Shown piece after piece: positions 14,488 to 36,320 of a stretch of DNA of 39,844 bases. This DNA is from an uncultured Rickettsiales bacterium (GTDB taxonomy: Bacteria > Pseudomonadota > Alphaproteobacteria > Rickettsiales > UBA1997), in NCBI GenBank assembly GCA_948744995.1, contig CAPZCD010000001.1, positions 1 through 39,844 of the forward strand, given 5' to 3'. Each line of letters opens with the position of its first letter. Positions within the stretch are counted from its first letter, which is position 1. Below the pieces are notes generated by a model. It searched no databases and was not told where the DNA came from. It saw only the letters and a program-made list of their open reading frames with translations. Both the position numbers and the translations under genes were made by a program.

Positions 14488-15033
14488 ATGACTGAACAAC
14501 TTGAAGAAGCAGCGACTTCTATAGATGATAAAATAGAAGGTACAGACGACAATAATCGGGTAGTAGCAGAAGCTACTGACAACAAAGAAATACAAAAAGA
14601 GGAGAAGTCGGAGGTTGAGGATGAAGTTGAAGAGGAAGAAAGAGTTGAACCTAAAAATGATAATGAAACTGATGATGAACCCAAAATTGAAAATGAAACA
14701 GAAATTAAAGCTGAAGATGAAGATGAGAGAGAAACAACAAGCAATTCGGCCATCAATATAGATTTTAGTTCCATAAACTACAAGGATTTTGAGAAGATAG
14801 ATCAGGAGCAGATAGATCTTTACTATATGTTGAATGACAATAAAAATAATGCTGAGTTTTTGAATGAAGATCTCGTAGCTCTAAGTAAAAGAGAAGAAGA
14901 AATTAAAGCATTAAAAGAGAAGGAGAAGGAAGAATTTGATTTTAAAATGGAGGAACTAGTTAGTGACGGAGATGAGGTCAAGGTTGATTTAACCGGAATA
15001 ATTGATGATTTAGAAATAGAAAAAGAGAAATAA
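14488..15033 (+). CDS. highly acidic E/D-rich hypothetical protein upstream of ruvB
   Basis: 181 aa starting at an ATG 30 nt after a TATAAT (14453-14458). It ends 5 nt before ruvB in the position usually held by ruvA, but shows no RuvA-like sequence. Low complexity makes the coding call less certain. Confidence 0.5.
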
Positions 15034-17322: not shown

Positions 17323-19101
17323 ATGCGCCTAAAGAAAAAGTCAATTTTAAAAAGAGCAATCTCTTTCTTCATATCCTATTCCCTAATCTTCAACAATTTG
17401 CTATATGCTTCATTACCTATAGCAGCATCTGGTAATAATAAAGAAGCTAAAGTATATAATCTTGAGAAAGAAGATGAAGAAATAGAAACAAACAGAAATA
17501 GTAGTATAAATTTACCTCGCACATCAGTTGACTCTGAAGAATTTAAATATATACTTTCTTTTATAAGAGAAAATATAATGATTAATAAAATTATAAATAG
17601 TGAAAAATTTAGAAAAAGATTCTACAAAGCGTCTAATTTAAAGTTAGAAGAATTAACCAAACTACTCGAAAAATCAGCAAAGGCAATAATAACACAAGAA
17701 TCAAATAAAACGAAAGAAGAAACAAAAGTTAGAGTTCTTCTATATAATGAGGATAATGATGTGCGAGGCTATTCGTTTAACCCTAGTTCCAATCTGGAAA
17801 CAAGAACAATAGGAATAAACATAAAAAATCATAATATGACAGACTCAGCCGATCTAGTAGAAACTATATTTCATGAATCTTATGATGAAAAGAAACATAC
17901 CAATAATGAACTGTCAGCTATAAGATTCGGCCGATATGCTAGAGGGCTATGGGATATAGTAGTTAGAGTAAATAATTTTACTTATTTGGGAAATAGTTCC
18001 AATTTTACCAATATAAATATTAGTGATCCAAGAATTGAGGATGCTACAAAAGAAACAAAGAAAATATATAAAAAGGTAAAAACATTAGGTTATAAAGCGG
18101 GAATATTCAATGAAGCTAAGATTATGGCGAGAGTTTTGGATTATAAGTGGTTAGAGGAATATTGTAAAAATAATCCAAATAAATGTATAACTAAACCTGA
18201 ACCATCGTTTAGCCTTATTCACTATGAAATCTTTTTTGAAGATGAAAAAGGTGGGCATATAGGATTCTTTGCTGATGGTTTTCCTAAAGGAATTTTTAAG
18301 GAGGGACTGATAAAACCAGATGATGAAATTAATATAGAAAAATACAATCAGGTAATTATGGACAATTTAGATGATAAAATTATGAGAGAAGCAATAGATT
18401 TGGCAATAAAGGAAGGAATTAAAAAATATGGCCTTACTCACCATTGCCAACATTTTGCAATGGATGATGTTATGCCAAGATACAATGAAATTTATAATCA
18501 TAGAAAAATGATTGCCAAACTTGAAGTTAAACTCGGTGATAAAATTGGTGGAATTAAAGATGAATTCGGTGCTGGTCTTGATGCTAGACCTAGAGCAGAA
18601 TTTGATAATAGACCTGGTGGTATTGGTAATGGACTCGGTAATGGAGTTGGTGGATTAGGTGGTAATGGTTTTGGTAACGGATTTGATATAGGTGGTGGTA
18701 TTGGTAACAGACCTGGAGGAATAGGATTTGATAATAGACCTGGCGGGTTTAGGGATGGTTTAGGTGCCAGACCTAGAGCAGAATTTGATAATAGGCCTGG
18801 TGGTATTGGTAATGGAGCTGGTGGACTCGGTGGTATTGGTGGTCTAGGTAACGGACCAGGTGGAGTTAGAGGTGAGCTTGGCGCCGGACTTGGTGCCATG
18901 CTTGATGCTGGGCTTGGTCCCGGTGGTAGATTTGGAGGAGAACCCGGAGGAGTAGGAAATAATAATAGGCCTGGTGGATTTGGTGGAGGTGGATGGAATC
19001 CTGGAGCTGGTGGTTTTGGTGGAGGAGGCTTTGGTAATGGACCTAATGGATTCGGCGGAATGAACTTCGGTGGTGGTCCAGGTGGTTTTGGTAGATTTTA
19101 G
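17323..19101 (+). CDS. secreted protein with unknown ~400-aa N-terminal domain and repetitive Gly-rich (NRPGG / GGFG) C-terminal tail
   Basis: 592 aa with the Sec signal MRLKKKSILKRAISFFISYSLIFNNLLYASLPIAAS. From ~aa 405 (DKIGGIKDEFGAGL) to the end it is almost only G/N/R/P/F/L repeats, ending GGPGGFGRF. The 3' part is duplicated twice downstream. Confidence 0.75.
   Translation: MRLKKKSILKRAISFFISYSLIFNNLLYASLPIAASGNNKEAKVYNLEKEDEEIETNRNSSINLPRTSVDSEEFKYILSFIRENIMINKIINSEKFRKRFYKASNLKLEELTKLLEKSAKAIITQESNKTKEETKVRVLLYNEDNDVRGYSFNPSSNLETRTIGINIKNHNMTDSADLVETIFHESYDEKKHTNNELSAIRFGRYARGLWDIVVRVNNFTYLGNSSNFTNINISDPRIEDATKETKKIYKKVKTLGYKAGIFNEAKIMARVLDYKWLEEYCKNNPNKCITKPEPSFSLIHYEIFFEDEKGGHIGFFADGFPKGIFKEGLIKPDDEINIEKYNQVIMDNLDDKIMREAIDLAIKEGIKKYGLTHHCQHFAMDDVMPRYNEIYNHRKMIAKLEVKLGDKIGGIKDEFGAGLDARPRAEFDNRPGGIGNGLGNGVGGLGGNGFGNGFDIGGGIGNRPGGIGFDNRPGGFRDGLGARPRAEFDNRPGGIGNGAGGLGGIGGLGNGPGGVRGELGAGLGAMLDAGLGPGGRFGGEPGGVGNNNRPGGFGGGGWNPGAGGFGGGGFGNGPNGFGGMNFGGGPGGFGRF
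18583..18816 (+). repeat. in-frame 51-bp direct repeat pair inside the Gly-rich tail
   Basis: 18583-18633 and 18766-18816 (GC(T/C)AGACCTAGAGCAGAATTTGATAATAG(A/G)CCTGGTGGTATTGGTAATGGA) differ at 2 positions. The offset is 183 nt, or 61 codons. Both encode ARPRAEFDNRPGGIGNG. Confidence 0.85.
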
Positions 19102-19282
19102 TATTTTAAGGAGAATATTGTATGTTCAGTGTTATAGTTGAAATGATTAATATTTTTTTAGGTATTTTTTGCTGGGGTGTGATCTATTTTGGTCGGTTTT
19201 TTGATACTTTATATCTGTGGATTTTGATTATAGTTAATGTTATTTCAAATTATTTAACTTTTGGTTTTAAAAATGTAAATGT
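18892..19282 (+). repeat. 391-bp direct repeat, copy 1 (tail 3' end + intergenic + 5' end of membrane-protein gene)
   Basis: It aligns without indels to 20648-21038, with about 15 mismatches by eye, 13 of them in the Gly-rich coding part. Weaker similarity continues to ~19320 and ~21088. Confidence 0.9.
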
Positions 19283-19739
19283 GCATGTATCAAATATGTA
19301 TATTATTTCTATATGTATATTATATTTTATTTGTCTAGAGCACCTTTCAAATATAGATGCACATATATTACTCATGCTAATGCTAATGCTAGTAATATTA
19401 GTATTAAATATGGTATATATAATAAGTAGTATTAATCTAACTAGAAAAGAAAGTAAATTTTATTTATACACCATGTATTTCTTTTTAGTAATGAATATTC
19501 TATATATAATTTCTATCATATATAAAGGCTTTATTCAAGGTGGAGTTCCAGATTTTTTATTACCCTACCTAGTTTTATTAAAATTCGTATTACTCCTAAA
19601 TAATATCTATATACCTTATCATTATCTGGACAATAAATATCTAAAATATACAATAATACTTGTTAGTTTGACATATTTTGCTATAGAAACTTATCATGGT
19701 GTTTTATTTGCTCTAAGCCCAGATGCTGGTTCACTATGA
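19122..19739 (+). CDS. multi-pass integral membrane protein (cassette partner A; immunity-like, hypothetical)
   Basis: 205 aa preceded by AAGGAG 8 nt upstream and starting 20 nt after the Gly-rich gene stop. It is almost entirely hydrophobic, with about 5-6 predicted helices by eye. It is a divergent paralog of 19953-20528, sharing L(Y/F)LW, NYL.FGF(K/R)N, ESK..(L/F)YT and NKYLKY. Confidence 0.7.
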   Translation: MFSVIVEMINIFLGIFCWGVIYFGRFFDTLYLWILIIVNVISNYLTFGFKNVNVHVSNMYIISICILYFICLEHLSNIDAHILLMLMLMLVILVLNMVYIISSINLTRKESKFYLYTMYFFLVMNILYIISIIYKGFIQGGVPDFLLPYLVLLKFVLLLNNIYIPYHYLDNKYLKYTIILVSLTYFAIETYHGVLFALSPDAGSL

Positions 19740-19941
19740 AATTTTGGATGATAAAATTGGTGGAATTAAAAATGAGCTTAGTGCTGGACTTGGTGCCATG
19801 CTTGATGCTGGGCTTGGTCCCGGTGGCAGACTTGGAGGAAGACAAGGAGGAGTAGGAAATAATAATAGGCCTGGTGGACTTGGCGGAGGAGGCTTTGGTA
19901 ACGGAGCTGGTGGTTTTGGTGGTGGTTTTGGTAGATTTTAA
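19723..19941 (+). CDS. 72-aa Gly-rich tail-only ORF (cassette 2; orphan copy of the 17323 gene 3' end)
   Basis: Its sequence is MLVHYEILDDKIGGIKNELSAGLGAMLDAGLGPGG...GGFGGGFGRF. The DNA matches 18535-18585 joined to 18885-19101 of the full gene, as if the internal ~300-bp repeat block were deleted. There is no SD, and the ATG overlaps the end of the upstream membrane gene by 17 nt. Translation is therefore uncertain (coupling, or a silent cassette). Confidence 0.4.
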   Translation: MLVHYEILDDKIGGIKNELSAGLGAMLDAGLGPGGRLGGRQGGVGNNNRPGGLGGGGFGNGAGGFGGGFGRF

Positions 19942-19952
19942 TAACTTTAGGA

Positions 19953-20528
19953 GTGTATATGTTATCTGAGTTTTTGCATTCTATTAAGAATACGATTGGT
20001 CTTATTGCATTTGTAAGTTTATTTATAAATGCCCTGTTTTTATGGCTTCCTATTATCAATAATGCAATTTTAAATTACTTGGTTTTCGGTTTTAGGAATA
20101 TAAAAGCTCATATGCTGAATACGGTAGTTATTTTTTTACAAATATTACTATTTGTTTATACGAATTCAGAGGATATAATTATTGCATATATCATACCGAT
20201 ACCCTGGTTGATCTATATGATTAGCAGTATCCTATATTTTAAGTGGGAAAGTAAGTTAACATTTTATACTATTTGTGTAATCTTAATATTATTTATGATG
20301 TGGATAATCTACCTCATCGTCACTAGTAGTTTGCACAATGACTTTTTTATTATAATAGCATACTGTAACTTTATATTTGGACTAACATTACCGATGTCTA
20401 ATGTACAACTGTTGAAACATCACTCCATCAATAAATATTTAAAATATATTACACTATTGATCAGTATAGCCTATGTTACCACATTAACCTATTTTTGTTT
20501 TAACTTTGCTCTGCATCCACCTAAATAA
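19953..20528 (+). CDS. multi-pass integral membrane protein (cassette partner B; immunity-like, hypothetical)
   Basis: 191 aa with AGGAG upstream, starting 11 nt after the cassette-2 tail stop. It is hydrophobic throughout and a divergent paralog of 19122-19739. Confidence 0.7.
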   Translation: MYMLSEFLHSIKNTIGLIAFVSLFINALFLWLPIINNAILNYLVFGFRNIKAHMLNTVVIFLQILLFVYTNSEDIIIAYIIPIPWLIYMISSILYFKWESKLTFYTICVILILFMMWIIYLIVTSSLHNDFFIIIAYCNFIFGLTLPMSNVQLLKHHSINKYLKYITLLISIAYVTTLTYFCFNFALHPPK

Positions 20529-20546
20529 ATTTTTGAAGATAGAGGA

Positions 20547-20857
20547 ATGTACCCATTGGAATATCTAAATCAGTTTACACCTAATCCAACAAAGAATACT
20601 GTGTTAAATAATCAAAATCCTCAGAATTTGCCAAGAGATTTGGGCTCGGTGCTATGCTTGATGCCGGACTTGGTCCCGGTGGTAGATTTGGAGGAGAACC
20701 CGGAGGAGCAGGAAATAATAATAGGCCTGGTGGGTTTGATGGAGGAGGATGGAATCCCGGAAATGGTAGATTTGGTGGAGGAGGCTTTGGTAATGGACCT
20801 AATGGATTCGGCGGAATGAACTTCGGTGGTGGTCCAGGCGGTTTTGGTAGATTTTAG
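20547..20857 (+). pseudogene. frameshifted Gly-rich tail ORF (cassette 3)
   Basis: The track gives two overlapping frames, 20547-20819 and 20654-20857. A novel 33-aa N-terminus (MYPLEYLNQFTPNPTKNTVLNNQNPQNLPRDLG) runs into tail homology. A 7-nt deletion relative to the main gene (GAGCTTGGCGCCGGACTTGGTGCCATG versus GATTTGGGCTCGGTGCTATG) shifts the frame. The Gly-rich frame itself is closed upstream by TAA at 20606. Confidence 0.5.
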
Positions 20858-21038
20858 TATTTTAAGGAGAATATTGTATGTTCAGTGTTATAGTTGAAAT
20901 GATTAATATTTTTTTAGGTATTTTTTACTGGGGTGTGATCTATTTTGGTCGGTTTTTTGATACTTTATATCTGTGGATTTTGATTATAGTTAATGTTATT
21001 TCAAATTATTCAACTTTTGGTTTTAAAAATGTAAATGT
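20648..21038 (+). repeat. 391-bp direct repeat, copy 2
   Basis: See 18892-19282. Confidence 0.9.
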
Positions 21039-21102
21039 ATATATAAATGTATATATATCAAATGCATGTAGTATTCCTATATGTATAATTCCAGATCCTT
21101 GA
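20878..21102 (+). pseudogene. truncated copy of membrane protein A (cassette 3 partner)
   Basis: The first ~54 codons are almost identical to 19122-19739 (MFSVIVEMINIFLGIF(C/Y)WGVIYFGRFFDTLYLWILIIVNVISNY...). Homology decays after ~21040 and the frame stops at 74 aa, against 205 aa for the full copy. Confidence 0.6.
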
Positions 21103-23178: not shown

Positions 23179-26100
23179 ATGAAAAACAAACAGTGTTTTT
23201 TTGGTAAATGTCGTATTTTTTCGTTTTTTAGATGTTTAGCTAGTGTTTTTATAATACTTATTTCTGTTAATGGTGGGATTTTTGGAGTTACATTACCAAA
23301 TTGTAATGTAGATATAAATGGAGTTGATGATAATTTGATACCTGATTTAATACAGTTAGCAACTACCGGTAATAATACAAATAAGCTATTCCTTATCGTA
23401 AAAAAAGATGAATTTGATAAGGGCAATATGTGTTATACAGCAACTGATAGTTATGTTAAGTGTGATAATGCAAGAATAAAAGGAGTGGGTGATTGTACAG
23501 ATAATATTGTTTGTGAAAGTGGCTATAGCGTATCTTGTGAGAGTAATAATAATGTCACCACTTGTAAATGTAAAAAGGGAACTGAAACAAAGGATTTTAC
23601 CGGAAAAGGAAATTGTACTGATTTTAATAACTATATTTCCTGCGAATCAAAAGATACTAGCTTAGATAAGGCTTGCTATCCGGAAAATCATATATGTTTG
23701 AAATATGGAAGTTATTATAAAAATAATGAAATGCTGTATAAGAAAGACGTACAAAATGAGAATGATAAATTTTATGTCTATAAAAAAAACATCATCAATT
23801 CTGGCACTAATAAAAATTGTGAATTTTATGTATTTCCCTGTGATTACAAGATTAGGAATGAATCAGCACCGGCTTTGAATGCCTGGCAAAATCAAGTTAA
23901 TTTAGTTGTTTCAGGGACTGCTAATGATAACAATAAATTATTTGTAAAAAATATATTTGGTAGTTTGGGTAATATGTCATTTTTTATCCAAGCAGGAGAG
24001 TGTGATATTAGTAATGGTACCTGTAGTGGTAACTGTAGTAGAGATAGTGGTGATAATCAATGTTCTACAGCTGAAGTTATAAAGAAAAGTTACTATTATA
24101 AATATTATGATAGTAATAGAAATGTACTGTTTTATTATGAGAAAAACATAGCCACCGGTAAGGAGAATAATATTGGAAGAATTTGTAATAAATATCTTCC
24201 AAATTGTGTTGATTTAAGACCTAATGATTCTATGGTTGTTTTATATCAGAATAAATCAAATATATCTAAACTTGAAAATAACACTAAAGCCAGAATAGAT
24301 TTTTACAAGAATAATATAGGGGATGGTTTTTCGGTCAATGAGGCTAATTTGTATTATTTATCATCTCCAGGCGCAGCTGATGCGTTATGTCTATCTAAGG
24401 AAGGCGCTGGTAATATTGATATTGGTTATTGTTCTGATATTGGTAAGAATGGAAGTTTAAAGTATAGATATGGTTTGACTTTAGCTTATTTTAAAAAAGA
24501 CAATACAGTAAAGCCAAATTGTTATTTGAAAAGTTGTATAGATCTCACTCCAGAAGAATTTGAAGTTATAAAAAGGGAAGGTGCAATTGATAAAAAGTAT
24601 TGTAGTGAATACTATTGGTTGTCTAATAGTAAGAGTTTAAAATATTTTCCGAAAGAGAAACCAATATACTGTTCGGATATTGAAAATGGTCATCTTAAGT
24701 TTTCTTTGCTGCATGAAATGAAAAATTTCTGTACCGACTATGATGATGAAGGAAAATGCAAAAGCGAGAAGGATATAAAATACTACGCCGGCGGTGGTCT
24801 TGATAGAGAAAAAGGTAATTGTTATGTAAAAAATTGTTATTCTTTAACTAAAGATGAAAGAAAATTGGTAGCTGATGCTAAGATTAATAATATAGGGTTG
24901 GAAATAGAAAGAGCTTGCCCCGAAGGAAGTAACTGTGATTATCAAAATAATTTTAAATCTGATAATATACCGGTATATTGTGACAACGGTTTTTTATTTA
25001 ATAAAGATACTCCCGGTTATACGAATTTTGAACCGATAAATCTTAATGTTATTCCATGTTATGAGTTTCAAAAAGAACAGTTAAATAATATTGGTGCCGA
25101 AAGAGTTTTATTGTTTACTGAATTAATCGGAAAAGATGGTAAACATGGTATGGGTGACAAAAAATATAATACAGATTTAGCCTTAAAGAAGGAAGATTCA
25201 GATTCTAGGTTTGTATTTTGTAGAACTCACTACGTACCTTTAAATTTAATAAAAAAAGCTGAAGATAATGGCACAAAAGCATCCTTTTTGAGGACGAGAG
25301 TGATATTGGCTAATGAAGAAGATAAGGCTGGTAATATTAATATTTATAGCTATGAAAATAAAAAAACCTTAGAAGATTTTGGTATAAAATATTTCCATGA
25401 TGATATGGGATATCAAAAGGTAAAATTTACATCGCGTAAACTGGATGAATTTAAGGATGTAAATAATTATATGAATATTTTAAGTTTTGTGGATAATGTA
25501 TTTCCCTACTATAATGCTGATTTAGCCGGTATGCAATCGTCTGATATATTTAATGGCAACGAAATAATCGGTTTTAAAATTAATGCCGTAAAACAAAAAA
25601 ATTCTGTTTTTTTTGACTGTTTAAATGATGAAAATAGAAAAAAACAAAAACAAAGTAAAGATGATGATTTAATAAAAGACGAAAATTGTAAAGATTGTGT
25701 TGGTGGTAAAGACGGAGATAGTCAAGAAAAATGTTTATATAATAAAAAAAATAAAGATAATGAAAAAATTTGTATGAAATATGTTCCTTTAGACTATGAA
25801 TGCAAACGTGAATGTTGTGATGGTAAAGATAGTATTACAGAAAATTACTGTTATATTGAAGACTTTGCTAAAGAAAAAATGTCGAATGCAAATTTTTATA
25901 TAGCTGAAACTGATAATACAGGTTATTTAGATTGTCCTGTGTATGCATACGCTGCTGCTGGTAGTGAAGAATATAAAAAATTTACAAATGGTATTATAGG
26001 TGATTTTTTAGAAGAAGTTGGAAAAGATAAACTTGATATAATAAAAGCTGCTTGTGATGATTTACTACCTATTGTTGATGACAGAAAATTACCAGAGGCT

Positions 26101-29100
26101 AGTATTTTACAACAATTAATAAAACCAAATAAAGTTGATATTAATTTTTCCAATAGTAGTGGTTCCCCTGGTAAACATGATCTAGAACGCTATGGTTGTA
26201 CTAAATTCAATGAAGTAAATCTGTATACTCATGGTTTATATGGTTGTAAATTACCAGATATAGATAGTTCATATTTTAATACCATTCTCAATCCGGTAAA
26301 TTTGTATAATGGTTCTGAAAAACCGACAGAACAAAAAATAACCGACCTTAGTGTATGCTCTAGGTATCAAAATGATGTACTTGGGGAAAGCAGCAAATGT
26401 GGCCAAAGAGAAGGAAGCCAATACAGGGATAAATGTTTAGATTTTAGTTTAGATGTATCAGATCGTAATTCAAATACACTGGATGATTCACCACAAAAAT
26501 CTAAATGGATATTTGAAGAATCAACCGGCGGTTCGAGATTTAGAACTTTTAGAGAGAATAGAGATATATATGCTATAAGAGATTTTCACACCTATCACTA
26601 TTGTTCGGCCACTGAAAATTTTGAAGGTAAAGATGATAAGGGCGCTGCATATGTATACGCCGCGGGATTTACAGCAGGAGCTGCCATAGGTACTGTTGCT
26701 TGTCCAATTGGATGCATCCCGGGGTGTATCTTTGCATTATTTGCAACCGGAGCTTGTATAGCCATTTGTATACCTGTCTGTATTGTTGCTACTGCTGCAG
26801 TAACTGGTGCTATCTATTTAGCTGCCAGATACGATCAGTGGAATTTAAATTTACAAAATGATTTGCAAATAGCCCGTGGTTATAACTTAAATAATTATCA
26901 AAATAAAGGTTTTATAACTCCAACTCTTGTGACAGATAATAACAACTACATCTATAGATTTTATTCTCGTTCGGATGATATAGAGGAAGATTTAGCTAAT
27001 AAGTTGAATGCTAATAGTGAATATTTTAAAGAAAACACTTTAGGTATAGATATATTAAAGAAATGTGGTATTAGTGTTATACCTAAAGATAGTACAGGTG
27101 AAGTTATAAATTTTGGTTTACTTGAATTAACTAAATCCGAACATGATGATAATATGGGATATAATTTTAGTTATAAGATTAAAAAATTTGAAGATGATGG
27201 TAAAGTTTCTATTGATGATTGTGGTGAATCCGATATAAAAAATTGCCTAAATGAAAAACAAAGGAAATGTGTTGAAGGTTATGGTGTGTCATTTTTTGAT
27301 GGAAATTTTATTAAATATATTAATAAAAATTTTATGCTAAACGAAGGCGGATTTTTAAAAAGATACAATAAAGGTGATATAGCAAAAGATGATTGGGGAA
27401 GTTTAGCCAGTCCTTCAAATAAAAATCGTGATTGGTTACCGGTTGACATTATTTATAATACTTTGGATACACAAAGTGAAGATGATATTAAGCAAAATGG
27501 AAATTGTAAAATAGGACTATTTGGCGATCCAATAGGCGATTTATCAAGATGCAGGGGTTTTAGTCTAAATTGCAAAAATGGTTCTGATAAAGATAAAGTT
27601 ATTTGTAATAAATTGGGAACAGAATTTAGTGAAGTACAAACATTTTTTACCGAAAGTCAAGCATTAAAATTGCCATTAGCAGGTCACCCTTTCTTTTTTT
27701 ATACATTACTTACACCAAAAAATACTCCGGAAATGTTTGATCCTTCTATTTTTGTTGAAGAATTTTGTAAATACAGTACTGATGCGTTTAGTTGTAAAGA
27801 AGGAAAAAGTATGACACCCAACGATGGTTTAAATAAGCTAGTACTTAATTTTTTTGAACCTATATTAAAAATTGGTTATGAATATAATGGCGGTATCGCC
27901 AATAACGATTTTAAAAATCATTTTACTCAATATAATAATTTTATTTCCTATATTAGTTCATTAAATAACAGTAGTCCGGATAACTATAGCTATAGCTGTC
28001 CTTATCAGGTAAAATATAAAAGTAACTATATTCAAACCGAAAGACAATATACTTACGTACTACACAGAACTTTCGAACAAGGTGCACATGATGAATATAT
28101 ACCTAAGGTATGTCTCTACAGAATAGTTAATGTTGAAGGTAGCAATAGTGTTAATACAATTTATAATTTTTATATAGATAATAAATGTTCTAAGAAAGAT
28201 GGTGTCTTGCAAAAAAACGGTTATATTATTATAGATAATAATGTTATGTGCTTTCCAAGAGCTCCGCTCAGTTTTGATAATCTAGTATTAGCTGAAAGCC
28301 CGGACATCAATTATAATAGACCATACATAAATTCAAAGATTACTGATAAGAATAGTGGAACTGATTATAAACTTATGCAAAGTGACGGAAGTGATGATAT
28401 AATGGATTTTGGTGAGAGTAGAGATCTTGGGTTTGGTTTAAATTTCACCAGAAGCTACTGCTCTAAGTTGTACTATGATTATTATAAATATGTAGATCAA
28501 TTAGAAAAAGGTGGGGATACTCTTGACCAAGCGACTATTAACCGAATAAATAAATCAATAAATAGTATAGAATCTTATGTGAGAAGTGATTGTGATAAAG
28601 AAAATGGATATGAAAGCGAATTTTTGATAAATGAATCAGAAATGAAATCTAAAATTGATGATGAAAATAAAAATATTCCAGATAGTGAAGTTGTTTTCAA
28701 GGAAACAGTAATAGTAAGAAAAAATAATAGTGCTTATGGTGGTTTTAATGAATTATGCGTTAGCGATTATGATATAGATAATATTTTTAGTATAAATAAG
28801 GAATATGCTATTTCCGATGAATTAACTGATTTTCCTGAAGTTTTTGCTTTTGCGAGTGACAATAATGATGGAGTTGATACAAAATGTTTGCTCAGTGACA
28901 GCAGTAGAGAAGATACTTCCTGTATGGTTACCGATAGGTTTGCTTATCTATATTTAACCAAAGCTGAGGAAGAGAATTATTCAGTTAATTGTGAAGATGG
29001 TAAATGTAAAAAAGGTGTTAGTGGTTGTAATGAAGAGCAATGTAGATTATATGTTAATGTAGATTCGCTTGAAAGAATTCCACTAAAAAAGTATGAATGT

Positions 29101-32100
29101 GTATTAGAAAATGGAAAGGTAAATCCTGAATTACTTACGGACGTAAATAATATAACAGACGAAATAGCAGAAAAGATAAGTGCATGTTATAAAGGTGGTT
29201 TTAATTATGCGGGTATTGTGCACGATTCTATAGATTCCAGCGAAGTAAAAACACAGTGTAAATGTAAAAACGTGACTACAGCGGAATTTTCAACTTATAA
29301 TAATGAAGTCTTAAAAATTAGAAGAATGACTCCGAGAGAATATGGGCTTTGTATTGACCTGAAAAAGCCTATCATATGCCCTGCCGTTAGATACTATGAT
29401 TCTACAAAAACATATGTTGATGACAATTTAGCGCTTGGTAAAACTCAAGAAGAAATGGATGAAAAAAGTGAACAAAAGTATTATGAACAGCATCTATGGC
29501 GAACAGCTGAAAAAATTGCTGGTATTATACCTAGTGTTTTCTATAGTAACACCCTAGGTCATGCGGAATTTCCAGCTAGTCTATATTGTGAAGACGAGAA
29601 AGATTGTTTGGGTGAATCTAAAAATGTGACCGGTTCTTGTTTGGGTTATTGGAAAAATGGTGATGCTATTCCAACCGCTACCTGCGAGGTTAAAACCTAT
29701 AAAAATAAAGAGAATGGAAAAATTAGAAATGTCTATGAATATAAGCTAAAAAATGGTACGGAATGTGTTAGATATAGATGCCCTGGTATTAGTGGCAACG
29801 ACTATTTAGACGAGTTTGAAATAGATAAAAATGCTTCTAATGTTTTTACAGCAGCAGAAATTACAGACTTTAATAATATAAATAGAACTGACTATAGAAG
29901 TTTTATCAATAATGAAGAAATTGATGTTTATTCTGTTGATAAGAGAGGTTTATCTAATGGTTTTGCTGCCTGGAGAGAACTAGAATCTGGTGATTTTGCT
30001 AAGGATAGATATGAAATTGAGGGTGATATTTTTGTAAATTGTCTAACCGGTTATGGTTTAGCTGGTTCAAATAATAGAATTTCGGATGCATTATTAAGTT
30101 TAAATACAGAATTAATAAGAGGTATAATTAAAGGAGAATGTTATTATAAAGTGGATAATAATGTATATCTCAATAATAATTTGCAACAACAACATATCAA
30201 AATATGTGAATCCGTTAGAAATGATATATATAAGTTTATATATAGTAACACTATTAATTTAACTAAAAACGCTTCAGAAACACCAAAAAAAGATAAACCA
30301 AAAAGATATTGTAACCAAAAAGGCGAGTGGATGCCGGTTGAAGATGTTTATAATAAAATGATCTTAGACAGCAGCAGTCTTGATAATAATTTATATCATA
30401 GTGGTGTGACAAATTTATGGCTTGATATCTTTAATAAAGAAAGAACTTATACTATTTCAAATGTTCTTGATGAAAATACTAGTTTAATAGATAAGGTCAG
30501 CCAATATGGTTATTGTGAGAGGTTGGTTTGTAGAGGAATAGAGCAACCGGATGAAAATTATTATATTGATGAATTTTTTAATGAAGAAAATGCAGATAGT
30601 AAAACTAAAGACATATATAAATTTTGGTTGCATTCAGGAGGTGCAAACTGGAAGGTTACTTCAGCCCCAAGAAATTCTTCAAATAAGATTACAAATGATG
30701 CCAATGCAGATCCTAATTCTAGTGAATTTTCTAGTAGAAGTTTAACAAACATATTCTCACTTGTAAGAGATAATGAATTTGATGATTATATTATAGGCAA
30801 TAAGTATAAATATCTAAAAAAGGTAAAAGGTGAATGTAGAAAAGAATTTGGTTATTATAATAGAGGTACAAGTTTTTCATTAACTGAGGTTGCTAAACAA
30901 GTTAGCGCAGTAAATTCCTTAGAAGCTGATGAAAATAGTAAAAAATGTACCTTAGATAAAGAATTATGCAAAAAAAGGTGTATCAATTTAGGTATTGATG
31001 CTAGTGATTGTAGTAAAAGATGCAGCGAGGATAATTTAGCATGTGAAAAATGTGTTGATTCCAGAAAAGCAACGAGTTTTGCTATAAATGGAAACGATGA
31101 ACCATATCGCGTATGTACCAGTGTAGGTGTATGGGGTGAAGTTAATAATAAATGCGTAAGATCGTGCGAGTTACTCCATTTATATAGAACAAATGTTAAT
31201 AGTGATTTGTATTCCTCTAATGAACAAATTAACATTAATGATATAAATAAAAATGAGTTAAAGATAGAAAATCATGATGTTATATCTTTTAATTCAGGAA
31301 ATATTAGTTATGAATATATGGAAGGTAGATTTTTAATGTACGATTTTAGAAATCCAAAATTAAAAAATGAGAGAAAATATACACAAGGAGACTCTATATT
31401 TGGAGGTGCTAACTGGCCAAGAAGTATTGTTAATGTGGATAATCCAGATGGATCTGATTGTGATAGTAACGGAAAATGTTTGAGATATGTAGAAGTTGAA
31501 GGAGTATGTAACAAAGAATATGATAAACAAGATGTAAGTGATCCTACCCAATATGGGAATAGCACAGTTGATTCTTATGGTAATCCAAAAGGACCAACAA
31601 GAAAATGTTATGAAGATGGAACCTGGGGCCCAATTTCTAATAAGTGCTTTTTAGAAAAGACTTGTGCCATATTATTTTTATCTGTTTCAGATATAGCGGA
31701 TCTTATAGCAAAATATAATAATGCAAATACTAATCTAAATGATTTAAACCATGCTATAAGTGATATATATGCCGAACATTTAGGTGAGAAAAATGAAAGA
31801 TCAGGGTTACTAACAATTGATACTAATAATGGTTTAGTTGGTTATCCCATAAGTTGTAATGGTGTTGTAGATAATACTATTAATGGTTTTGAATCTATAA
31901 AAGTGGAAGGTTTAAGACAAACATATTGCAGCTCCCCTGGTTGTTGTGAAAATGCAGTGTCAATGGTTTGCAATAGTTCTGGAGAATCATGTGCTAATGG
32001 TGTTTGTCATATTGCCGGTTGGTCATTTAACACATTGGAATTAGAAAAATACTTTATTCCAAAAACTTGTAATATATCTTTAAAAAGAGATCCGGAAGAT

Positions 32101-35100
32101 AATAATATTTATTATAAAATTTATGGTACACCAAACACTGTTTTTAGCGATAGTAATGATTTGTTTAATAAAATAGATAGACTAAATTTTGGGTTTGCTG
32201 GTAAAATTAGTAATTATCCAATAAAGAATTCAGCTAAACATTACACAAAAGAAAGCCAATTTGATTCAGTTTATAATAAAATAAATAATGCTACAAACAG
32301 TAATTATAAGGTTAAAAAAACGGGTGATACTAGTACTGGTGTTGATATTGCTATTCCTGCTCTATACGATAAGACTGTTAATATTAATGGTTCCATAGGA
32401 GGAAGAAGTGGAAGTAACAAAGTATATTACTCTCACCAAATATATGCAACCTGTGATAATAGATATTTTTATAATGAAGTTTCTGGAAATGATTATTATA
32501 ACAAATTAGCCATTTTCTCTTGTCAGGGAGAAAGTGGTAATCTTAGATTTAAACCAGAATATACAGATGGTGACTATATATTAAAATCTGAAACATCACC
32601 TGCTGATGCCTGCAAGCCAAAAACTTGCGGTAGTAATTCTTATCAAATAGGTTGGTCCTTAAGTCAAGTCAAAGAATTTGTTGATAATAATGCCAAAGAA
32701 TATAATAATGATAAGAATAATAATACTGAGGAATATAACAATAAAAAGTACGAGGGGCTTAATAAATTTTCACAATTAACGTGTCCAGATAAATATGCTT
32801 TTGTCATAAAAAAAGATACAGATAATAAACTTGATGATAGTCTTAATGTTGGAAGTTATTTTTCTTCTAATAATGAAAGTTATGAAGCCGATGGCCTTGT
32901 GAGTTCTTTAAAACTTACCTGTACTGCAAAAAGATCCGAAAATGCATATACTAATACTAATGAACCACAGGAAGTTTGGAATAGTAATTCATCATTTAAG
33001 ATAATAAATGGTAAAACTGCTAATAATGCATATGATGCCAACAGATATGGAGATTTACAGTATAACGATTTACCTAAGACTTTCTGCAAAGATATAGCCA
33101 AAAATGATTGTAAGACAGTAACAGAGACAGAAATTATAAATAATGGTGATATTTTCTCACGTAATGCTGATGATAATACAAATCCTGGATACTGTGTTAG
33201 AATGGGCTGTCCTAGATTAAATTTAAAAATTGTTAAGGATGAAGATACTTTAAAAGCAACACAAGCTGGAAATTCTACTTCCTCTAACACTTTTTCTGAT
33301 ATACCGGGAACTTTTACTTTACCTTTAAAATATGGAAATGATGATACTAATAACTATTATGATTTTGGTGATGTTGTCGTTATTCAGTCGTTGGATGGAG
33401 ACTATAGCGAAAATGACTGTCCATCTGATATATGTGGAGATGATAAATATATTAAAAAATTTGTCCAATATACTAGCGCTGGAGTAGGAAATGGACAAAT
33501 AGGAAGTAGTTTATGCGGATATAATCAAGATATATATAATGATGGAGGTAGCGATAAATTTAGTTATAATTATTATTTTGACCTTAAAAAAAATGAAGAT
33601 AGAAAGGAAGATATTTCAAATTGTTTTAATAATTTATCTTCAAAAGATTCATTAAGTAAGACAAATGTCGGTGGTTATACAAAAATTAATGATTCATTAT
33701 ATGTAAAATATAGAGATGATTATAAAAGTGAAATAAATGTAATTAACAATGTTAAGTCTTTAGCTAACTATACTGTAACAAGAGATAATGATGATATAAA
33801 AGGCAAAGCTAACGACCTTTTCAAGAAATATACTTTTGATAAGATTAGTATCAGTAATGGTGAAATAAATAATAATGTTAGTGAAAAATTAAGTTCATTA
33901 CGAGAATTTGTCGATGGTCAGATTAAAACTATTAATGATTATGCCGTTGGAGAAGCGAAAAAACTATCAAATGGTACTAATACTAACGTTAGCTATCACT
34001 GCTTGTATGATGATGAAGTCACAAGCTTGAATACAGGCAATGGAATTAGATTTACCAGTACAGGACATGGACTATTCAAGTGTGGAACTAGCTCTTGTAA
34101 AGATAAAGAAGTGATTTTTATTAAAAATGGTGATGATAAATGTAAAAAAACTGTTACTAATGGTGATAAACAAGAAACAGTATCTGGTTCATATTATTTG
34201 AATGTCAATGATTTTGAGACAAAATTTAATACTGAAGCCGAAGCAAAACGCAAAAATTTAAGTGATAATTTTAAGGCAAGTGATAGTACTGATGCAACTG
34301 TAAAATCATTGTATACTGAGTATTATGATTTTTATTTAGCTGAAAGTTATTTTAAGGCGGAAGGAAATGCTTGTAGAATAAAATATTACAATAGTTTTAT
34401 ATCCGAAATAATTGGTTCGGTGGCAGAAGAAGATGGAGTAACTGATCCAATAATACAAAAAATATCTAAAATGACTACTCCAAAGGGACAAGTTTATGTA
34501 ATGAAAAGTGATGGTGAAATAATAATGAATTTTGAAGGTACAGAAGATGATATTGATGAAACAACAAACTCTATAGACTGTTCCAAAATTGAGATTAAAG
34601 AAGAAGATAGTATAGTATTTGCATATCCTATTGATGAAAATGGGAATATTTCTTTCGCTAACTATGAAAAATACATTAATAATGATGGTGTGATTTGCAA
34701 AAATTATTCAGTAAACGATGATGGAGTTGAGACTATAAAGGATTGTAATAATTCAATCTCAATTCCAAATGAAGTTATGGAAGAATATGAAAATTACTAT
34801 TTAAATATTTTTGAAAAAATTAAACCAGTTATAAATGATCATAATGAATATTATAAGAAAAAATATCAGGATGAAGAAAATAAATGTAAAGAATTTTATA
34901 GTGATTTTTTAGATGAAAAGTCTAAATTTGGTACAAGTTATACAAATACAATTAAAAATGGTCTGTTTATGGCTATGAAGTGTACTCCTGAAGGCTGGAT
35001 TGTTCAAGGTAAACCTAGTTGTAAGAAGAGATGCAGCAGTCATGCAGATTTTAGAATTGACCCAGATGGTGCTGGAGATTTTGACATTACAATAAAAATT

Positions 35101-35592
35101 GATAATTTAAGACATTCAATAAATACTGGTATGATAGAAGTAGGGGCTCACAGAGGTTTAGCTAATTGTTCTGCAGCATTGAGTAAGGTATATGGTAGAA
35201 ATGGGGCGTCATTTTCATGCAACAATGGAGAAATGACAACAAATTTGCTTACCACAAAAGAGGGTGGCGTTTTAAAAAATGGCTATAAATACCACAGCAA
35301 TGGATTAGCATGGCATATATATTGTAGTGGTACATTTAGTGCCTTTGGAATAACAACCCAAAGAAATGCCGATGTTGGTGGTTTTTTTCATACTGTCGAA
35401 TGTAATAAAAATGATAGCTTCTGTTGGCGAGACCATTATGAAAATGATGTTGCTGTTTTGTGTCCTAATAGTAAGGATGTACATAAACTAGTTCATTCAT
35501 GCGACACATTTTATAATTGTATTAATGATCACAAATGTGATACTAAATTTGATACTGTTACAACTGTAAATTATGAAGCTAATTTTCATTAA
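23179..35592 (+). CDS. giant (4137 aa) cysteine-rich membrane-anchored protein, function unknown
   Basis: This is an uninterrupted 12,414-nt ORF. It has an N-terminal hydrophobic anchor/signal (RIFSFFRCLASVFIILISVNGGIFG). Cys occurs roughly every 15-25 residues along the whole length. A central 62-residue hydrophobic block spans aa 1155-1216. Motifs of the form C-x3-4-G-x-W-x5-8-C-x2-4-C and C-x2-5-C-(D/S/P)-L recur. All antisense ORFs are short. Confidence 0.9.
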   Translation: MKNKQCFFGKCRIFSFFRCLASVFIILISVNGGIFGVTLPNCNVDINGVDDNLIPDLIQLATTGNNTNKLFLIVKKDEFDKGNMCYTATDSYVKCDNARIKGVGDCTDNIVCESGYSVSCESNNNVTTCKCKKGTETKDFTGKGNCTDFNNYISCESKDTSLDKACYPENHICLKYGSYYKNNEMLYKKDVQNENDKFYVYKKNIINSGTNKNCEFYVFPCDYKIRNESAPALNAWQNQVNLVVSGTANDNNKLFVKNIFGSLGNMSFFIQAGECDISNGTCSGNCSRDSGDNQCSTAEVIKKSYYYKYYDSNRNVLFYYEKNIATGKENNIGRICNKYLPNCVDLRPNDSMVVLYQNKSNISKLENNTKARIDFYKNNIGDGFSVNEANLYYLSSPGAADALCLSKEGAGNIDIGYCSDIGKNGSLKYRYGLTLAYFKKDNTVKPNCYLKSCIDLTPEEFEVIKREGAIDKKYCSEYYWLSNSKSLKYFPKEKPIYCSDIENGHLKFSLLHEMKNFCTDYDDEGKCKSEKDIKYYAGGGLDREKGNCYVKNCYSLTKDERKLVADAKINNIGLEIERACPEGSNCDYQNNFKSDNIPVYCDNGFLFNKDTPGYTNFEPINLNVIPCYEFQKEQLNNIGAERVLLFTELIGKDGKHGMGDKKYNTDLALKKEDSDSRFVFCRTHYVPLNLIKKAEDNGTKASFLRTRVILANEEDKAGNINIYSYENKKTLEDFGIKYFHDDMGYQKVKFTSRKLDEFKDVNNYMNILSFVDNVFPYYNADLAGMQSSDIFNGNEIIGFKINAVKQKNSVFFDCLNDENRKKQKQSKDDDLIKDENCKDCVGGKDGDSQEKCLYNKKNKDNEKICMKYVPLDYECKRECCDGKDSITENYCYIEDFAKEKMSNANFYIAETDNTGYLDCPVYAYAAAGSEEYKKFTNGIIGDFLEEVGKDKLDIIKAACDDLLPIVDDRKLPEASILQQLIKPNKVDINFSNSSGSPGKHDLERYGCTKFNEVNLYTHGLYGCKLPDIDSSYFNTILNPVNLYNGSEKPTEQKITDLSVCSRYQNDVLGESSKCGQREGSQYRDKCLDFSLDVSDRNSNTLDDSPQKSKWIFEESTGGSRFRTFRENRDIYAIRDFHTYHYCSATENFEGKDDKGAAYVYAAGFTAGAAIGTVACPIGCIPGCIFALFATGACIAICIPVCIVATAAVTGAIYLAARYDQWNLNLQNDLQIARGYNLNNYQNKGFITPTLVTDNNNYIYRFYSRSDDIEEDLANKLNANSEYFKENTLGIDILKKCGISVIPKDSTGEVINFGLLELTKSEHDDNMGYNFSYKIKKFEDDGKVSIDDCGESDIKNCLNEKQRKCVEGYGVSFFDGNFIKYINKNFMLNEGGFLKRYNKGDIAKDDWGSLASPSNKNRDWLPVDIIYNTLDTQSEDDIKQNGNCKIGLFGDPIGDLSRCRGFSLNCKNGSDKDKVICNKLGTEFSEVQTFFTESQALKLPLAGHPFFFYTLLTPKNTPEMFDPSIFVEEFCKYSTDAFSCKEGKSMTPNDGLNKLVLNFFEPILKIGYEYNGGIANNDFKNHFTQYNNFISYISSLNNSSPDNYSYSCPYQVKYKSNYIQTERQYTYVLHRTFEQGAHDEYIPKVCLYRIVNVEGSNSVNTIYNFYIDNKCSKKDGVLQKNGYIIIDNNVMCFPRAPLSFDNLVLAESPDINYNRPYINSKITDKNSGTDYKLMQSDGSDDIMDFGESRDLGFGLNFTRSYCSKLYYDYYKYVDQLEKGGDTLDQATINRINKSINSIESYVRSDCDKENGYESEFLINESEMKSKIDDENKNIPDSEVVFKETVIVRKNNSAYGGFNELCVSDYDIDNIFSINKEYAISDELTDFPEVFAFASDNNDGVDTKCLLSDSSREDTSCMVTDRFAYLYLTKAEEENYSVNCEDGKCKKGVSGCNEEQCRLYVNVDSLERIPLKKYECVLENGKVNPELLTDVNNITDEIAEKISACYKGGFNYAGIVHDSIDSSEVKTQCKCKNVTTAEFSTYNNEVLKIRRMTPREYGLCIDLKKPIICPAVRYYDSTKTYVDDNLALGKTQEEMDEKSEQKYYEQHLWRTAEKIAGIIPSVFYSNTLGHAEFPASLYCEDEKDCLGESKNVTGSCLGYWKNGDAIPTATCEVKTYKNKENGKIRNVYEYKLKNGTECVRYRCPGISGNDYLDEFEIDKNASNVFTAAEITDFNNINRTDYRSFINNEEIDVYSVDKRGLSNGFAAWRELESGDFAKDRYEIEGDIFVNCLTGYGLAGSNNRISDALLSLNTELIRGIIKGECYYKVDNNVYLNNNLQQQHIKICESVRNDIYKFIYSNTINLTKNASETPKKDKPKRYCNQKGEWMPVEDVYNKMILDSSSLDNNLYHSGVTNLWLDIFNKERTYTISNVLDENTSLIDKVSQYGYCERLVCRGIEQPDENYYIDEFFNEENADSKTKDIYKFWLHSGGANWKVTSAPRNSSNKITNDANADPNSSEFSSRSLTNIFSLVRDNEFDDYIIGNKYKYLKKVKGECRKEFGYYNRGTSFSLTEVAKQVSAVNSLEADENSKKCTLDKELCKKRCINLGIDASDCSKRCSEDNLACEKCVDSRKATSFAINGNDEPYRVCTSVGVWGEVNNKCVRSCELLHLYRTNVNSDLYSSNEQININDINKNELKIENHDVISFNSGNISYEYMEGRFLMYDFRNPKLKNERKYTQGDSIFGGANWPRSIVNVDNPDGSDCDSNGKCLRYVEVEGVCNKEYDKQDVSDPTQYGNSTVDSYGNPKGPTRKCYEDGTWGPISNKCFLEKTCAILFLSVSDIADLIAKYNNANTNLNDLNHAISDIYAEHLGEKNERSGLLTIDTNNGLVGYPISCNGVVDNTINGFESIKVEGLRQTYCSSPGCCENAVSMVCNSSGESCANGVCHIAGWSFNTLELEKYFIPKTCNISLKRDPEDNNIYYKIYGTPNTVFSDSNDLFNKIDRLNFGFAGKISNYPIKNSAKHYTKESQFDSVYNKINNATNSNYKVKKTGDTSTGVDIAIPALYDKTVNINGSIGGRSGSNKVYYSHQIYATCDNRYFYNEVSGNDYYNKLAIFSCQGESGNLRFKPEYTDGDYILKSETSPADACKPKTCGSNSYQIGWSLSQVKEFVDNNAKEYNNDKNNNTEEYNNKKYEGLNKFSQLTCPDKYAFVIKKDTDNKLDDSLNVGSYFSSNNESYEADGLVSSLKLTCTAKRSENAYTNTNEPQEVWNSNSSFKIINGKTANNAYDANRYGDLQYNDLPKTFCKDIAKNDCKTVTETEIINNGDIFSRNADDNTNPGYCVRMGCPRLNLKIVKDEDTLKATQAGNSTSSNTFSDIPGTFTLPLKYGNDDTNNYYDFGDVVVIQSLDGDYSENDCPSDICGDDKYIKKFVQYTSAGVGNGQIGSSLCGYNQDIYNDGGSDKFSYNYYFDLKKNEDRKEDISNCFNNLSSKDSLSKTNVGGYTKINDSLYVKYRDDYKSEINVINNVKSLANYTVTRDNDDIKGKANDLFKKYTFDKISISNGEINNNVSEKLSSLREFVDGQIKTINDYAVGEAKKLSNGTNTNVSYHCLYDDEVTSLNTGNGIRFTSTGHGLFKCGTSSCKDKEVIFIKNGDDKCKKTVTNGDKQETVSGSYYLNVNDFETKFNTEAEAKRKNLSDNFKASDSTDATVKSLYTEYYDFYLAESYFKAEGNACRIKYYNSFISEIIGSVAEEDGVTDPIIQKISKMTTPKGQVYVMKSDGEIIMNFEGTEDDIDETTNSIDCSKIEIKEEDSIVFAYPIDENGNISFANYEKYINNDGVICKNYSVNDDGVETIKDCNNSISIPNEVMEEYENYYLNIFEKIKPVINDHNEYYKKKYQDEENKCKEFYSDFLDEKSKFGTSYTNTIKNGLFMAMKCTPEGWIVQGKPSCKKRCSSHADFRIDPDGAGDFDITIKIDNLRHSINTGMIEVGAHRGLANCSAALSKVYGRNGASFSCNNGEMTTNLLTTKEGGVLKNGYKYHSNGLAWHIYCSGTFSAFGITTQRNADVGGFFHTVECNKNDSFCWRDHYENDVAVLCPNSKDVHKLVHSCDTFYNCINDHKCDTKFDTVTTVNYEANFH

Positions 35593-36293: not shown

Positions 36294-36310
36294 TTATAAA
36301 TATCCCAAAA
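36258..36310. repeat. direct repeat, left copy (3' end of radC)
   Basis: TTCCACAAAAATAGACTTGTGATTGATAATTTTTAGTTATAAATATCCCAAAA matches 37031-37084 at about 45 of 54 positions by eye. The two copies bracket the fic gene. Confidence 0.8.
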
Positions 36311-36320
36311 CATATTTTAC

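Follow-up and report, generated by a model that had tools for sequence, protein, structure and literature searches.

A putative polymorphic-toxin/immunity array with tail-only orphan cassettes in an uncultured Rickettsiales bacterium

What kind of system is encoded where a secreted protein with a long glycine-rich tail is followed by two further copies of that tail, and every tail by a gene for a membrane protein? This arrangement occupies positions 17323–21102 of a 39,844-nt stretch of contig CAPZCD010000001.1 (GCA_948744995.1; hereafter, the window), which comes from an uncultured Rickettsiales bacterium with an AT-rich genome (~30% GC). All coordinates are positions in the window unless another locus is named, and open reading frames (ORFs) were taken from a program-made list. 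The initial annotation, made from the sequence alone, had described a secreted gene, a membrane gene A, a tail ORF, a membrane gene B, a further tail and a truncated copy of A, with tails ending in GGFGRF and Shine–Dalgarno (SD) sequences before the membrane genes, and all of these are present as described. With a probability of roughly 60%, we read the locus as a chromosomal polymorphic-toxin/immunity array, in which a Sec-exported protein with a His300/Cys375 domain would be the toxin, the membrane proteins (memA and memB) would confer immunity and the Gly-rich tail would be an add-on.

Domain architecture of the 592-aa protein

The first gene of the array (17323–19101, + strand) encodes a 592-aa protein that we divide into a signal peptide, a pre-toxin domain, a His/Cys toxin domain and the Gly-rich tail. 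The predicted signal peptide (residues 1–35, MRLKKKSILKRAISFFISYSLIFNNLLYASLPIAAS; 17323–17427, +), read by eye from the sequence, is of the Sec type, with a basic N-terminus, a hydrophobic core and A-x-S; the N-terminus has neither a lipobox Cys nor a double-glycine leader. Searches of Pfam and NCBIfam with this protein, memA, memB and a 192-aa protein encoded downstream gave no match, and a word-indexed search of 5.8 billion proteins with the N-terminal part of the toxin found only the orthologue from a sister strain (98% identity). Using residues 35–415, a HMMER scan of 1.84 billion cluster representatives returned 25 matches at E < 1e-3, which fell into two blocks.

The first block, region 1 (residues ~120–240; 17680–18042, +), has invariant H184, E185 and H192 (HMMER matches P0007–P0025, alignment A9). 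In other, TpsA-type proteins it sits before unrelated C-terminal domains (lipase-like, ParB_N, LysM and Ntox10), and in locus L010 two neighbouring modules have it in common and part ways immediately past GERDN; because of these contexts, the alignments identify region 1 as a conserved pre-toxin domain. Weak SprT-like matches in 4 of 12 members suggest a zincin-like pre-toxin or releasing peptidase, and a PDB sequence search with the region 1 profile returned nothing. The HE-x6-H signature is invariant and widespread, and the domain is absent from Pfam. As a separate observation, the second module of the TpsA-type locus (L010 2371–4508) has the pre-toxin domain followed by an alpha/beta-hydrolase tip (lipase-like, HSHGGN) and then a different, 226-aa polytopic membrane protein.

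Region 2 (residues ~294–400; 18202–18522, +), the proposed toxin domain, follows the pattern H-x-x-I-F-F-E-D ... G-F-F ... D-D-x-I-M-R-x-A ... N-N-C-Q-x-F and reads HYEIFFED ... LDDKIMREA ... HHCQHF in the window protein, with His300 and Cys375 invariant in alignment A3. Its homologues also occur as C-terminal tips of CdiA/TpsA and Rhs scaffolds. The pre-toxin domain DUF637 precedes region 2 in P0021, an AENN/LNNAY (VENN-like) motif lies directly upstream of it in P0010, P0021 and P0022, and an Rhs-type YDPFGL motif precedes it in L009; P0016, an orphan module, lies behind a TpsA of 2415 aa. P0026 is a 1918-aa protein with TPS and Fil_haemagg_2 domains and an adjoining ShlB-type transporter gene, and both blocks (residues ~80–394 of the window protein) align with its C-terminal 320 residues. 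With residues 1–420 as the query, BLASTP matched the C-terminal module of the L010 TpsA at E 5e-14 across residues 87–390.

On the strength of these alignments, residues ~87–400 share homology with the toxin modules found at the C-termini of TpsA/CdiA and Rhs polymorphic toxins, and the 592-aa protein appears as a complete TpsA/CdiA-type C-terminal toxin module with a Sec-type signal peptide in front and a Gly-rich tail behind. This bears out the earlier proposal that the locus resembles contact-dependent growth inhibition (CDI) and Rhs polymorphic-toxin loci with displaced 3' tips and immunity genes. It does not bear out the accompanying view of the tail as the likely active tip behind an N-terminal part of no assigned nature, as homology places the toxin domain in that N-terminal part.

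Sequence patterns and a structural model make a circularly permuted papain-like (PPPDE/LRAT/NlpC-P60) enzyme fold probable for the toxin domain. Six of the nine region 2 members gave sub-threshold Pfam matches to Peptidase_C97/PPPDE (best E 3e-5), LRAT and RTE1; the window protein itself has no PPPDE or LRAT match in Pfam. An AlphaFold2 model of region 2 (nine sequences; predicted local distance difference test score (pLDDT) of 67) places Cys375 where a long helix begins (helix 89–115 of the model), giving the order expected of PPPDE/LRAT enzymes, an invariant His followed by a Cys at a helix N-terminus. AlphaFold2 applied to the whole protein without an alignment yielded a pLDDT of 32 and no usable structure. 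The region 2 motif Y-x-L-x-x-(N/H)(N/H)-C-Q-x-F also resembles NCNHF and NCEHF, which we take to be motifs of the PPPDE and LRAT families. Both families are circularly permuted and papain-like, with His before Cys; LRATs work at the membrane–water interface, and the C92 enzymes are lipid amidases (PMC10318531).

Membrane-protein genes and orphan cassettes

The toxin gene is followed by memA (19122–19739, +), which encodes 205 aa with ~6 transmembrane (TM) segments and whose SD sequence, AGGAG (19109–19113, +; located by sequence alignment), has the ATG 8 nt further on. memB (19959–20528, +) is an intact, divergent gene of the same immunity type, encoding 189 aa from its ATG. Two starts are available to it (19953 and 19959, for 191 and 189 aa), of which the ATG at 19959, 5 nt past the AGGAG at 19949–19953, is the likelier. 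The two proteins are homologous (33% identity, E 4e-18), with ~6 hydrophobic segments each, and belong to no Pfam or NCBIfam family; no known family in these databases claims the tail or the membrane proteins, which disposes of the concern that they might be members of a functionally unrelated one. A word-indexed protein search with memA found only itself, and a memA/B profile found no relatives in a scan of GTDB genomes and nothing in viral contigs. When MltG was used for the GTDB scan, one alphaproteobacterial metagenome-assembled genome was recovered (76% identity), which lacks both synteny with the window and a cassette locus.

The function of memA and memB is best approached from the homologous loci. 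A polytopic membrane protein lies directly downstream of the toxin domain in four of the seven other loci, often overlapping the toxin stop codon: L006 (182 aa, 6 TM), L007 (276 aa, 9 TM), L010 (262 aa, 8 TM) and L018 (216 aa, 6 TM). The gene in this place encodes a protein with a single TM segment or signal in L009 (152 aa) and L015 (65 aa), and L016 has none adjacent. memA and memB match these four loci in position, SD and type of membrane protein, with dissimilar sequences. Because of this recurrent neighbour, memA and memB are most likely immunity proteins; their position and polytopic type are as expected for immunity against a toxin with a periplasmic or membrane site of action.

The Gly-rich low-complexity tail of the full-length gene (tail 1; residues 405–592; 18535–19098, +) contains six NRPGG units and ends in GGFGRF. 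It has no hydrophobic segment, received no structure from AlphaFold2 and was not seen in the region 2 homologues examined outside the lineages linked to memA/B. A 133-aa Pro-rich ORF on the opposite strand (18498–18899, −) was considered as a gene and rejected, being merely the reverse-complement reading of Gly codons.

Parts of this tail recur twice downstream. Orphan tail 2 (19744–19941, +) starts within a few bases of the memA stop codon and consists of a linker, LDDKIGGIK, and a shortened tail, after which comes intact memB. The annotated ORF here (19723–19941, 72 aa) starts at MLVHY; these first codons are the 3' end of memA in an alternative frame, and toxin homology runs from ~19744 (LDDKIGGIK). 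HYEI in the same ORF was likewise discarded as a remnant of the catalytic His motif, since its bases belong to the memA 3' end. Orphan tail 3 (20642–20857, +) begins mid-tail past a unique 113-nt spacer (20529–20641, +), which has no homology to the toxin gene and is absent from the sister strain L004. It is 93% identical in nucleotides to the final 71 codons of tail 1, with homology from 20642, a frame open from ~20630, an ATG at 20654 and a stop codon at 20855–20857. The third tail that the initial annotation had called a frameshifted ORF (20547–20819) therefore exists, but that ORF is an out-of-frame reading, and the tail is truncated at its 5' end behind the spacer. It runs into a near-identical, truncated copy of memA (20878–21102, +; 74 aa), which matches memA in 52 of the first 54 codons, is disrupted after 54 codons by a 12-nt tandem duplication at 21032–21057 and is then cut off. 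The duplicated unit, TAAATGTATATA, is present 2.2 times, and the duplication marks the exact point at which the copy departs from memA. As the same truncated end is found in L004, the remnant is old.

All three tails close with GGFGRF and a stop codon, and AGGAG and a start codon come next each time; SD sequences are lacking for both orphan tails and present for each membrane gene. In self-comparison, 18886–19303 matches 20642–21056 with 94.5% identity across 418 nt, and 18859–19025 in tail 1 matches 19759–19925 in orphan tail 2 with 86% nt identity, repeats far beyond chance. The linker of orphan 2 has 85% identity over 48 nt to 18537–18584, and 18 of 21 nt at 19738–19758 match an LDDKI-coding island within the toxin domain (18361–18381, +), a candidate recombination junction. 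The LDDKI and GDKIGGIK echoes thus hold at the DNA level (direct repeats D12 and D4). The orphan cassettes are 5'-truncated remnants of a toxin gene, reduced to the Gly-rich tail, together with immunity-type genes. An orphan fragment is also found in L006, where 72 aa from the 3' end of the region 2 toxin domain follow the immunity gene.

The ratio of non-synonymous to synonymous substitution rates (dN/dS) was 0.73 for tail 1 versus tail 2, 0.57 for tail 2 versus tail 3 and 0.63 for the two tails (a and b) of the second-lineage array L012, values that mark the orphan tails as under relaxed constraint (0.57–0.73); the estimate for tail 1 versus tail 3 was ~0.2, from only 15 changes (9.5 synonymous, 5.5 non-synonymous). 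This pattern fits an immunity gene that is kept beside a decaying or converted toxin remnant better than a tail selected as an orphan product. In both lineages the tails are 86–95% alike at the nucleotide level and the adjacent membrane proteins 27–35% alike in amino acids, and recombination at the tail/membrane-gene boundary is therefore required. In the expressed copy the tail probably has a function, because two lineages with otherwise different tails have kept the same kind of end, rich in Gly and Phe and terminating in Phe. Our main reading of the tail is that of a functional disordered extension which also acts as a recombination handle.

Scans of the window for Rfam families and tRNAs found nothing, and a promoter/terminator scan gave no signal above shuffled expectation in this AT-rich DNA. 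The best sigma-70-like match of the region, TTGACA-18-TATCAT (11/12), lies at 19668–19697 (+), in the 3' end of memA upstream of orphan 2, and could be an independent promoter for memB.

Strain variation, mechanism and alternative readings

An array of near-repeats from a metagenome raises the possibility that the cassettes are an assembly artefact, a repeat collapsed or expanded. In GCA_948754625.1 the same order is split between two contigs, with the break inside the repeat, and the L004 variant is known from one short-read contig. However, contigs from ERZ17962068 and ERZ781212, of different samples and assemblers, have an identical layout with 99.98–99.99% identity to the window across the whole array, the copies are 5–15% divergent and flanked by unique sequence, and the L004 junction carries its own single-nucleotide polymorphisms and shares only ~20 nt, which is incompatible with a k-mer collapse of the window haplotype. 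The toxin gene is also identical in four contigs from several samples. The layout is confirmed as real, reproduced by three independent assemblies and with variants in two related genomes, and the chance that it is artefactual is negligible.

The sister strain (L004, from SRR30592878) shows how the array can differ. The first 425 codons of its toxin gene are close to those of the window (dS 0.04, 97.6% aa identity). Its tail, at ~40 aa, is a mosaic in which tail-1-like sequence gives way to tail-2-like sequence at an NRPGG repeat, so that tail length in functional copies ranges from ~40 to 188 aa. This tail leads straight into a memB-type gene (memB*); memA and tail 3 are absent, and the truncated memA remnant comes after. 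Between memB and memB*, dN is 0.14 and dS 0.55, compared with a dS of 0.03–0.18 for flanking genes. The resulting ratio of 0.25 points to purifying selection, and hence to a functional memB, and the dS marks memB and memB* as old functional alleles and not recently diverged orthologues; the cassette must therefore have been exchanged or re-sorted by recombination.

A second lineage, represented by L012 and L011 from two other metagenomes, contains the nearest homologues of the C-terminal half of the toxin (54% identity, HHCQHFAMDD(I/V)MPRY), again within an array. The first part of this array has a tail ending in ...GGGSGGFNSGFGSRFGGF at the stop codon, followed by a 189-aa memA homologue (mem1; 32% identity, E 2e-20), and the second has an orphan that starts from MEDLDD, a tail ending in ...GGSGSRFGGF, a 199-aa divergent membrane protein and a further tail-only fragment. 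These tails are Q/N-rich with a Gly/Phe-rich end and 88% identical to each other in nucleotides; the two membrane proteins are 27% identical. Tail and membrane genes thus co-occur in relatives, as the initial annotation had required, and in two lineages similar tails stand beside membrane genes that are ancient, divergent alleles. Orphans in L012/L011 begin at MEDLDD or inside the tail, and MEDLDD is homologous to M346–D351 of the window protein and to YEILDD of orphan 2. Together with the recombined tail of the sister strain, this makes it plausible that the echoed motifs are recombination junctions, as had been suggested. Orphan toxin-fragment/immunity arrays that vary by strain, typical of polymorphic toxins, are therefore seen as two modules in the window, the L004 recombinant and at least three modules in L012.

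In the mechanism that we propose, a standalone 592-aa toxin derived from the C-terminal module of a TpsA/CdiA-type effector would be exported to the periplasm by Sec, and its His300/Cys375 enzyme domain would act there or on the surface of the membrane. The next gene, memA, with an SD of its own for translation, would supply the inner-membrane immunity protein that guards the producer once the toxin enters its own periplasm; memB would be a second functional immunity allele, probably also in the inner membrane, kept against the variant toxins of neighbours. The toxin would then reach competitors. By analogy with colicin translocation domains and Cdz proteins, the tail, a disordered and clade-specific add-on, may aid outer-membrane passage, uptake or surface retention, and it would survive in the 5'-truncated orphans because no other part of the toxin gene lies nearer the 3' end or is more repetitive. 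Recombination in the tail and at the islands LDDKI, GDKIGGIK and NRPGG would generate, delete and swap tail–membrane-gene cassettes, and one such event may have given the sister-strain order of toxin, recombined tail and memB*. Homology, gene order, the limits of the cassettes, the differences between strains and the patterns of selection come directly from the data, whereas toxicity, immunity, the place of action and the role of the tail are inferred.

Several results weigh against this assignment and account for our reserve. The best Pfam match of the region 2 family scored 21.8 bits against a cut-off of 29.2, all such matches being below the gathering score; a Foldseek search of PDB with the region 2 model of pLDDT 67 gave no match (E > 4), and PDB sequence searches with the region 2 profile and with P0010 were empty. 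Comparison by hhalign of the mem family with the membrane proteins of the homologous TpsA-type loci gave a probability of 0.1%, that is, no similarity, and no outer-membrane secretion partner is encoded within the 39.8-kb window. The sister strain poses the sharpest difficulty: it keeps a toxin 97.6% identical to that of the window with only memB*, which is 35% identical to memA. Immunity alleles specific to the toxin domain would leave L004 unprotected, so that either the membrane proteins cross-protect or specificity resides in the tail. In polymorphic toxins the toxin domain is expected to be the variable part; here it is 97.6% identical between the two strains, while tail and membrane gene are exchanged, the reverse of the usual logic.

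Specificity in the tail would make the tail and its membrane gene the true functional, exchangeable module, with the tail itself as a membrane-active or translocating tip similar to Gly-rich bacteriocins, glycine-zipper toxins or the disordered translocation domain of colicins, the membrane protein as its specific partner and the His/Cys domain as a constant carrier or releasing peptidase. The duplicated and swapped units begin at the toxin/tail linker and hold no toxin domain, L004 keeps the toxin and changes tail end and membrane gene together, and the mem family (A7) is found only adjoining such tails. In tail-less homologues, however, region 2 is terminal and membrane proteins are still downstream. 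Types of tail end and membrane protein are paired in five of five cases (...MNFGGGPGGFGRF with memA twice, ...AGGFGGGFGRF with memB or memB* twice, plus the L012 pairs), which physical linkage explains equally well, and similarity is far higher among the tails than among the membrane proteins supposed to be their specific partners. A Gly/Phe-rich, Phe-terminated end kept in two lineages and the mostly synonymous differences between tails 1 and 3 speak for this reading; set against them are a dN/dS of 0.57–0.73 in orphan tails, functional tails of anything from ~40 to 188 aa, orphan tail ORFs without an SD and a tail with neither a hydrophobic segment nor predicted structure. On balance we consider this arrangement unlikely. 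We are equally doubtful of a version in which the toxin domain is a constant scaffold and the disordered Gly/aromatic-rich tail is a specificity-determining, membrane-active or porin-threading element with a six-TM cognate neutraliser; if true, it would describe a polymorphic system built on a low-complexity domain and not on a folded toxin tip.

Two further readings were weighed. As eukaryotic PPPDE members are deSUMOylases or deubiquitinases (PMC10318531), the protein might be an effector that an alphaproteobacterium living as a symbiont or parasite directs at its host, joining a PPPDE-type deubiquitinase/deSUMOylase to an FG/RGG domain for host condensates or nuclear pores, with the membrane proteins otherwise employed. 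The AT-rich genome with its many orphan genes and giant 4137-aa protein, an FG-repeat protein in the nearest genome found and the Q/N-rich, prion-like tails of the second lineage would suit such a lifestyle. We nevertheless find it improbable: orphan arrays and a close, recurrent linkage to divergent genes for polytopic membrane proteins are hallmarks of toxin/immunity conflict and not of host effectors, the closest domain contexts are TpsA/CdiA and Rhs loci in diverse metagenomes, and the protein has only a Sec signal, with no host-delivery system nearby. The conserved C-terminal end (FGRF or RFGGF before the stop) and the polytopic membrane protein always directly next to it could also recall a C-terminal sorting or processing signal served by a dedicated membrane enzyme or exporter, exosortase- or rhombosortase-like. 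Unlike known sorting signals, the motif is not followed by a TM helix and basic cluster, and alignment A7 of the mem family contains no invariant Cys, His, Ser, Asp or Glu of the catalytic kind. An enzyme at 27–35% identity would be unexpected with a substrate at 86–95%, one truncated copy is tolerated and the tail occurs in no other protein of the window, all of which makes this explanation highly improbable. We therefore retain the polymorphic-toxin/immunity array as the preferred reading.

Genomic surroundings and comparison with known systems

Elsewhere in the window, a giant ORF (23179–35592, +) encodes a Cys-rich protein of 4137 aa with an N-terminal hydrophobic segment and no Pfam match; the sister-strain copy has 4242 aa, and parts of the gene are 87–92% identical in nucleotides between the strains, compared with 96–99% for neighbouring housekeeping genes. 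It has the appearance of a hypervariable surface protein. Another ORF without a family match (14488–15033, +), of 181 aa and very acidic, ends 5 nt before ruvB, in the usual place of ruvA, and is only 92% identical in amino acids between strains. The window starts with an IS1-type transposase fragment (81–500), and it also contains RadC and Fic-domain genes back to back (35613–36932) and an anaerobic ribonucleotide reductase gene (NrdD; 37233–39365), unusual for an alphaproteobacterium, which hints at an anoxic habitat. In the nearest genome found, 'uncultured Alphaproteobacteria bacterium Batch6_idba_bin.52', a 270-aa protein (L005 5059–5871, −) has SFGT/QSFGT repeats that resemble those of FG nucleoporins, another low-complexity Gly/Phe protein in the same bacterial group.

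Among described systems, the locus most resembles the orphan cdiA-CT/cdiI modules, in which gene fragments that lack initiation signals and retain variable upstream homology each precede an immunity gene (2011, PMC3150448). Here, too, a full-length toxin gene and immunity gene precede 5'-truncated fragments, each with an SD-bearing immunity gene and varying by strain. Unlike CDI orphans, these fragments keep only the low-complexity tail and no toxin domain, and it is the tail with the immunity gene that is exchanged. The window further differs from CDI and Rhs loci in having no TpsA/CdiA body, CdiB, VENN motif or Rhs core, the toxin being a 592-aa protein with a Sec signal; TPS, Fil_haemagg, DUF637 and ShlB domains were found neither in this protein nor elsewhere in the 39.8 kb.

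For the putative immunity proteins, a precedent exists in the integral-membrane CdiI proteins of membrane-acting CdiA-CT toxins such as the EC93 ionophore family, which are likewise small, very hydrophobic, polytopic inner-membrane proteins and highly polymorphic between alleles (PMC11630599). The EC93-type toxins themselves are helical-bundle ionophores, whereas the window toxin has a His/Cys domain without hydrophobic helices and no sequence similarity to them. Its His-before-Cys order is instead that of the PPPDE (Peptidase_C97), LRAT and C92 families of permuted NlpC/P60-like enzymes. The tail recalls the intrinsically unstructured translocation domains of colicin-type proteins. It differs from these in being C-terminal and not N-terminal, with the toxin domain before the disordered region and no Tol/Ton box identified, and the window contains no lysis gene or colicin domains. 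In its disordered Gly/Asn/aromatic-rich composition and its membrane immunity partner, the protein, for which we infer an antibacterial role, is also comparable to Gly-rich bacteriocins and the glycine-zipper CdzC/D proteins of Caulobacter (PMC5380434). Class II microcins and Cdz proteins are set apart by the 592-aa length and Sec-type signal of the window protein, which has no double-glycine leader, and no exporter of the C39 ATP-binding cassette or type I secretion kind is encoded in the window.

The locus would thus function in the manner of a polymorphic toxin/immunity array that carries orphan modules, and is neither a CDI/Rhs locus nor a microcin or colicin. The earlier statement that no described system has this combination holds for the tail only, as the rest is that of a polymorphic toxin/immunity array. 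New are a CdiA-type module in standalone, Sec-exported form, a low-complexity tail placed after the toxin domain and three families without a Pfam entry, two of domains and one of immunity-type proteins. Two uncharacterised domain families gain a context, the pre-toxin HE...H domain and the His/Cys toxin domain usually paired with membrane immunity proteins, and the architecture suggests an evolutionary route from a CdiA-type C-terminal toxin module to a standalone Sec-exported toxin. The disordered tail is both the sole toxin sequence kept in the orphans and the site of recombination between strains. Should it serve, for example, in uptake, surface retention or toxicity, low-complexity sequence would here be put to a new use in antagonism between bacteria; should it have no role, the array still offers a clean illustration from nature of how repeats mediate the shuffling of immunity cassettes.

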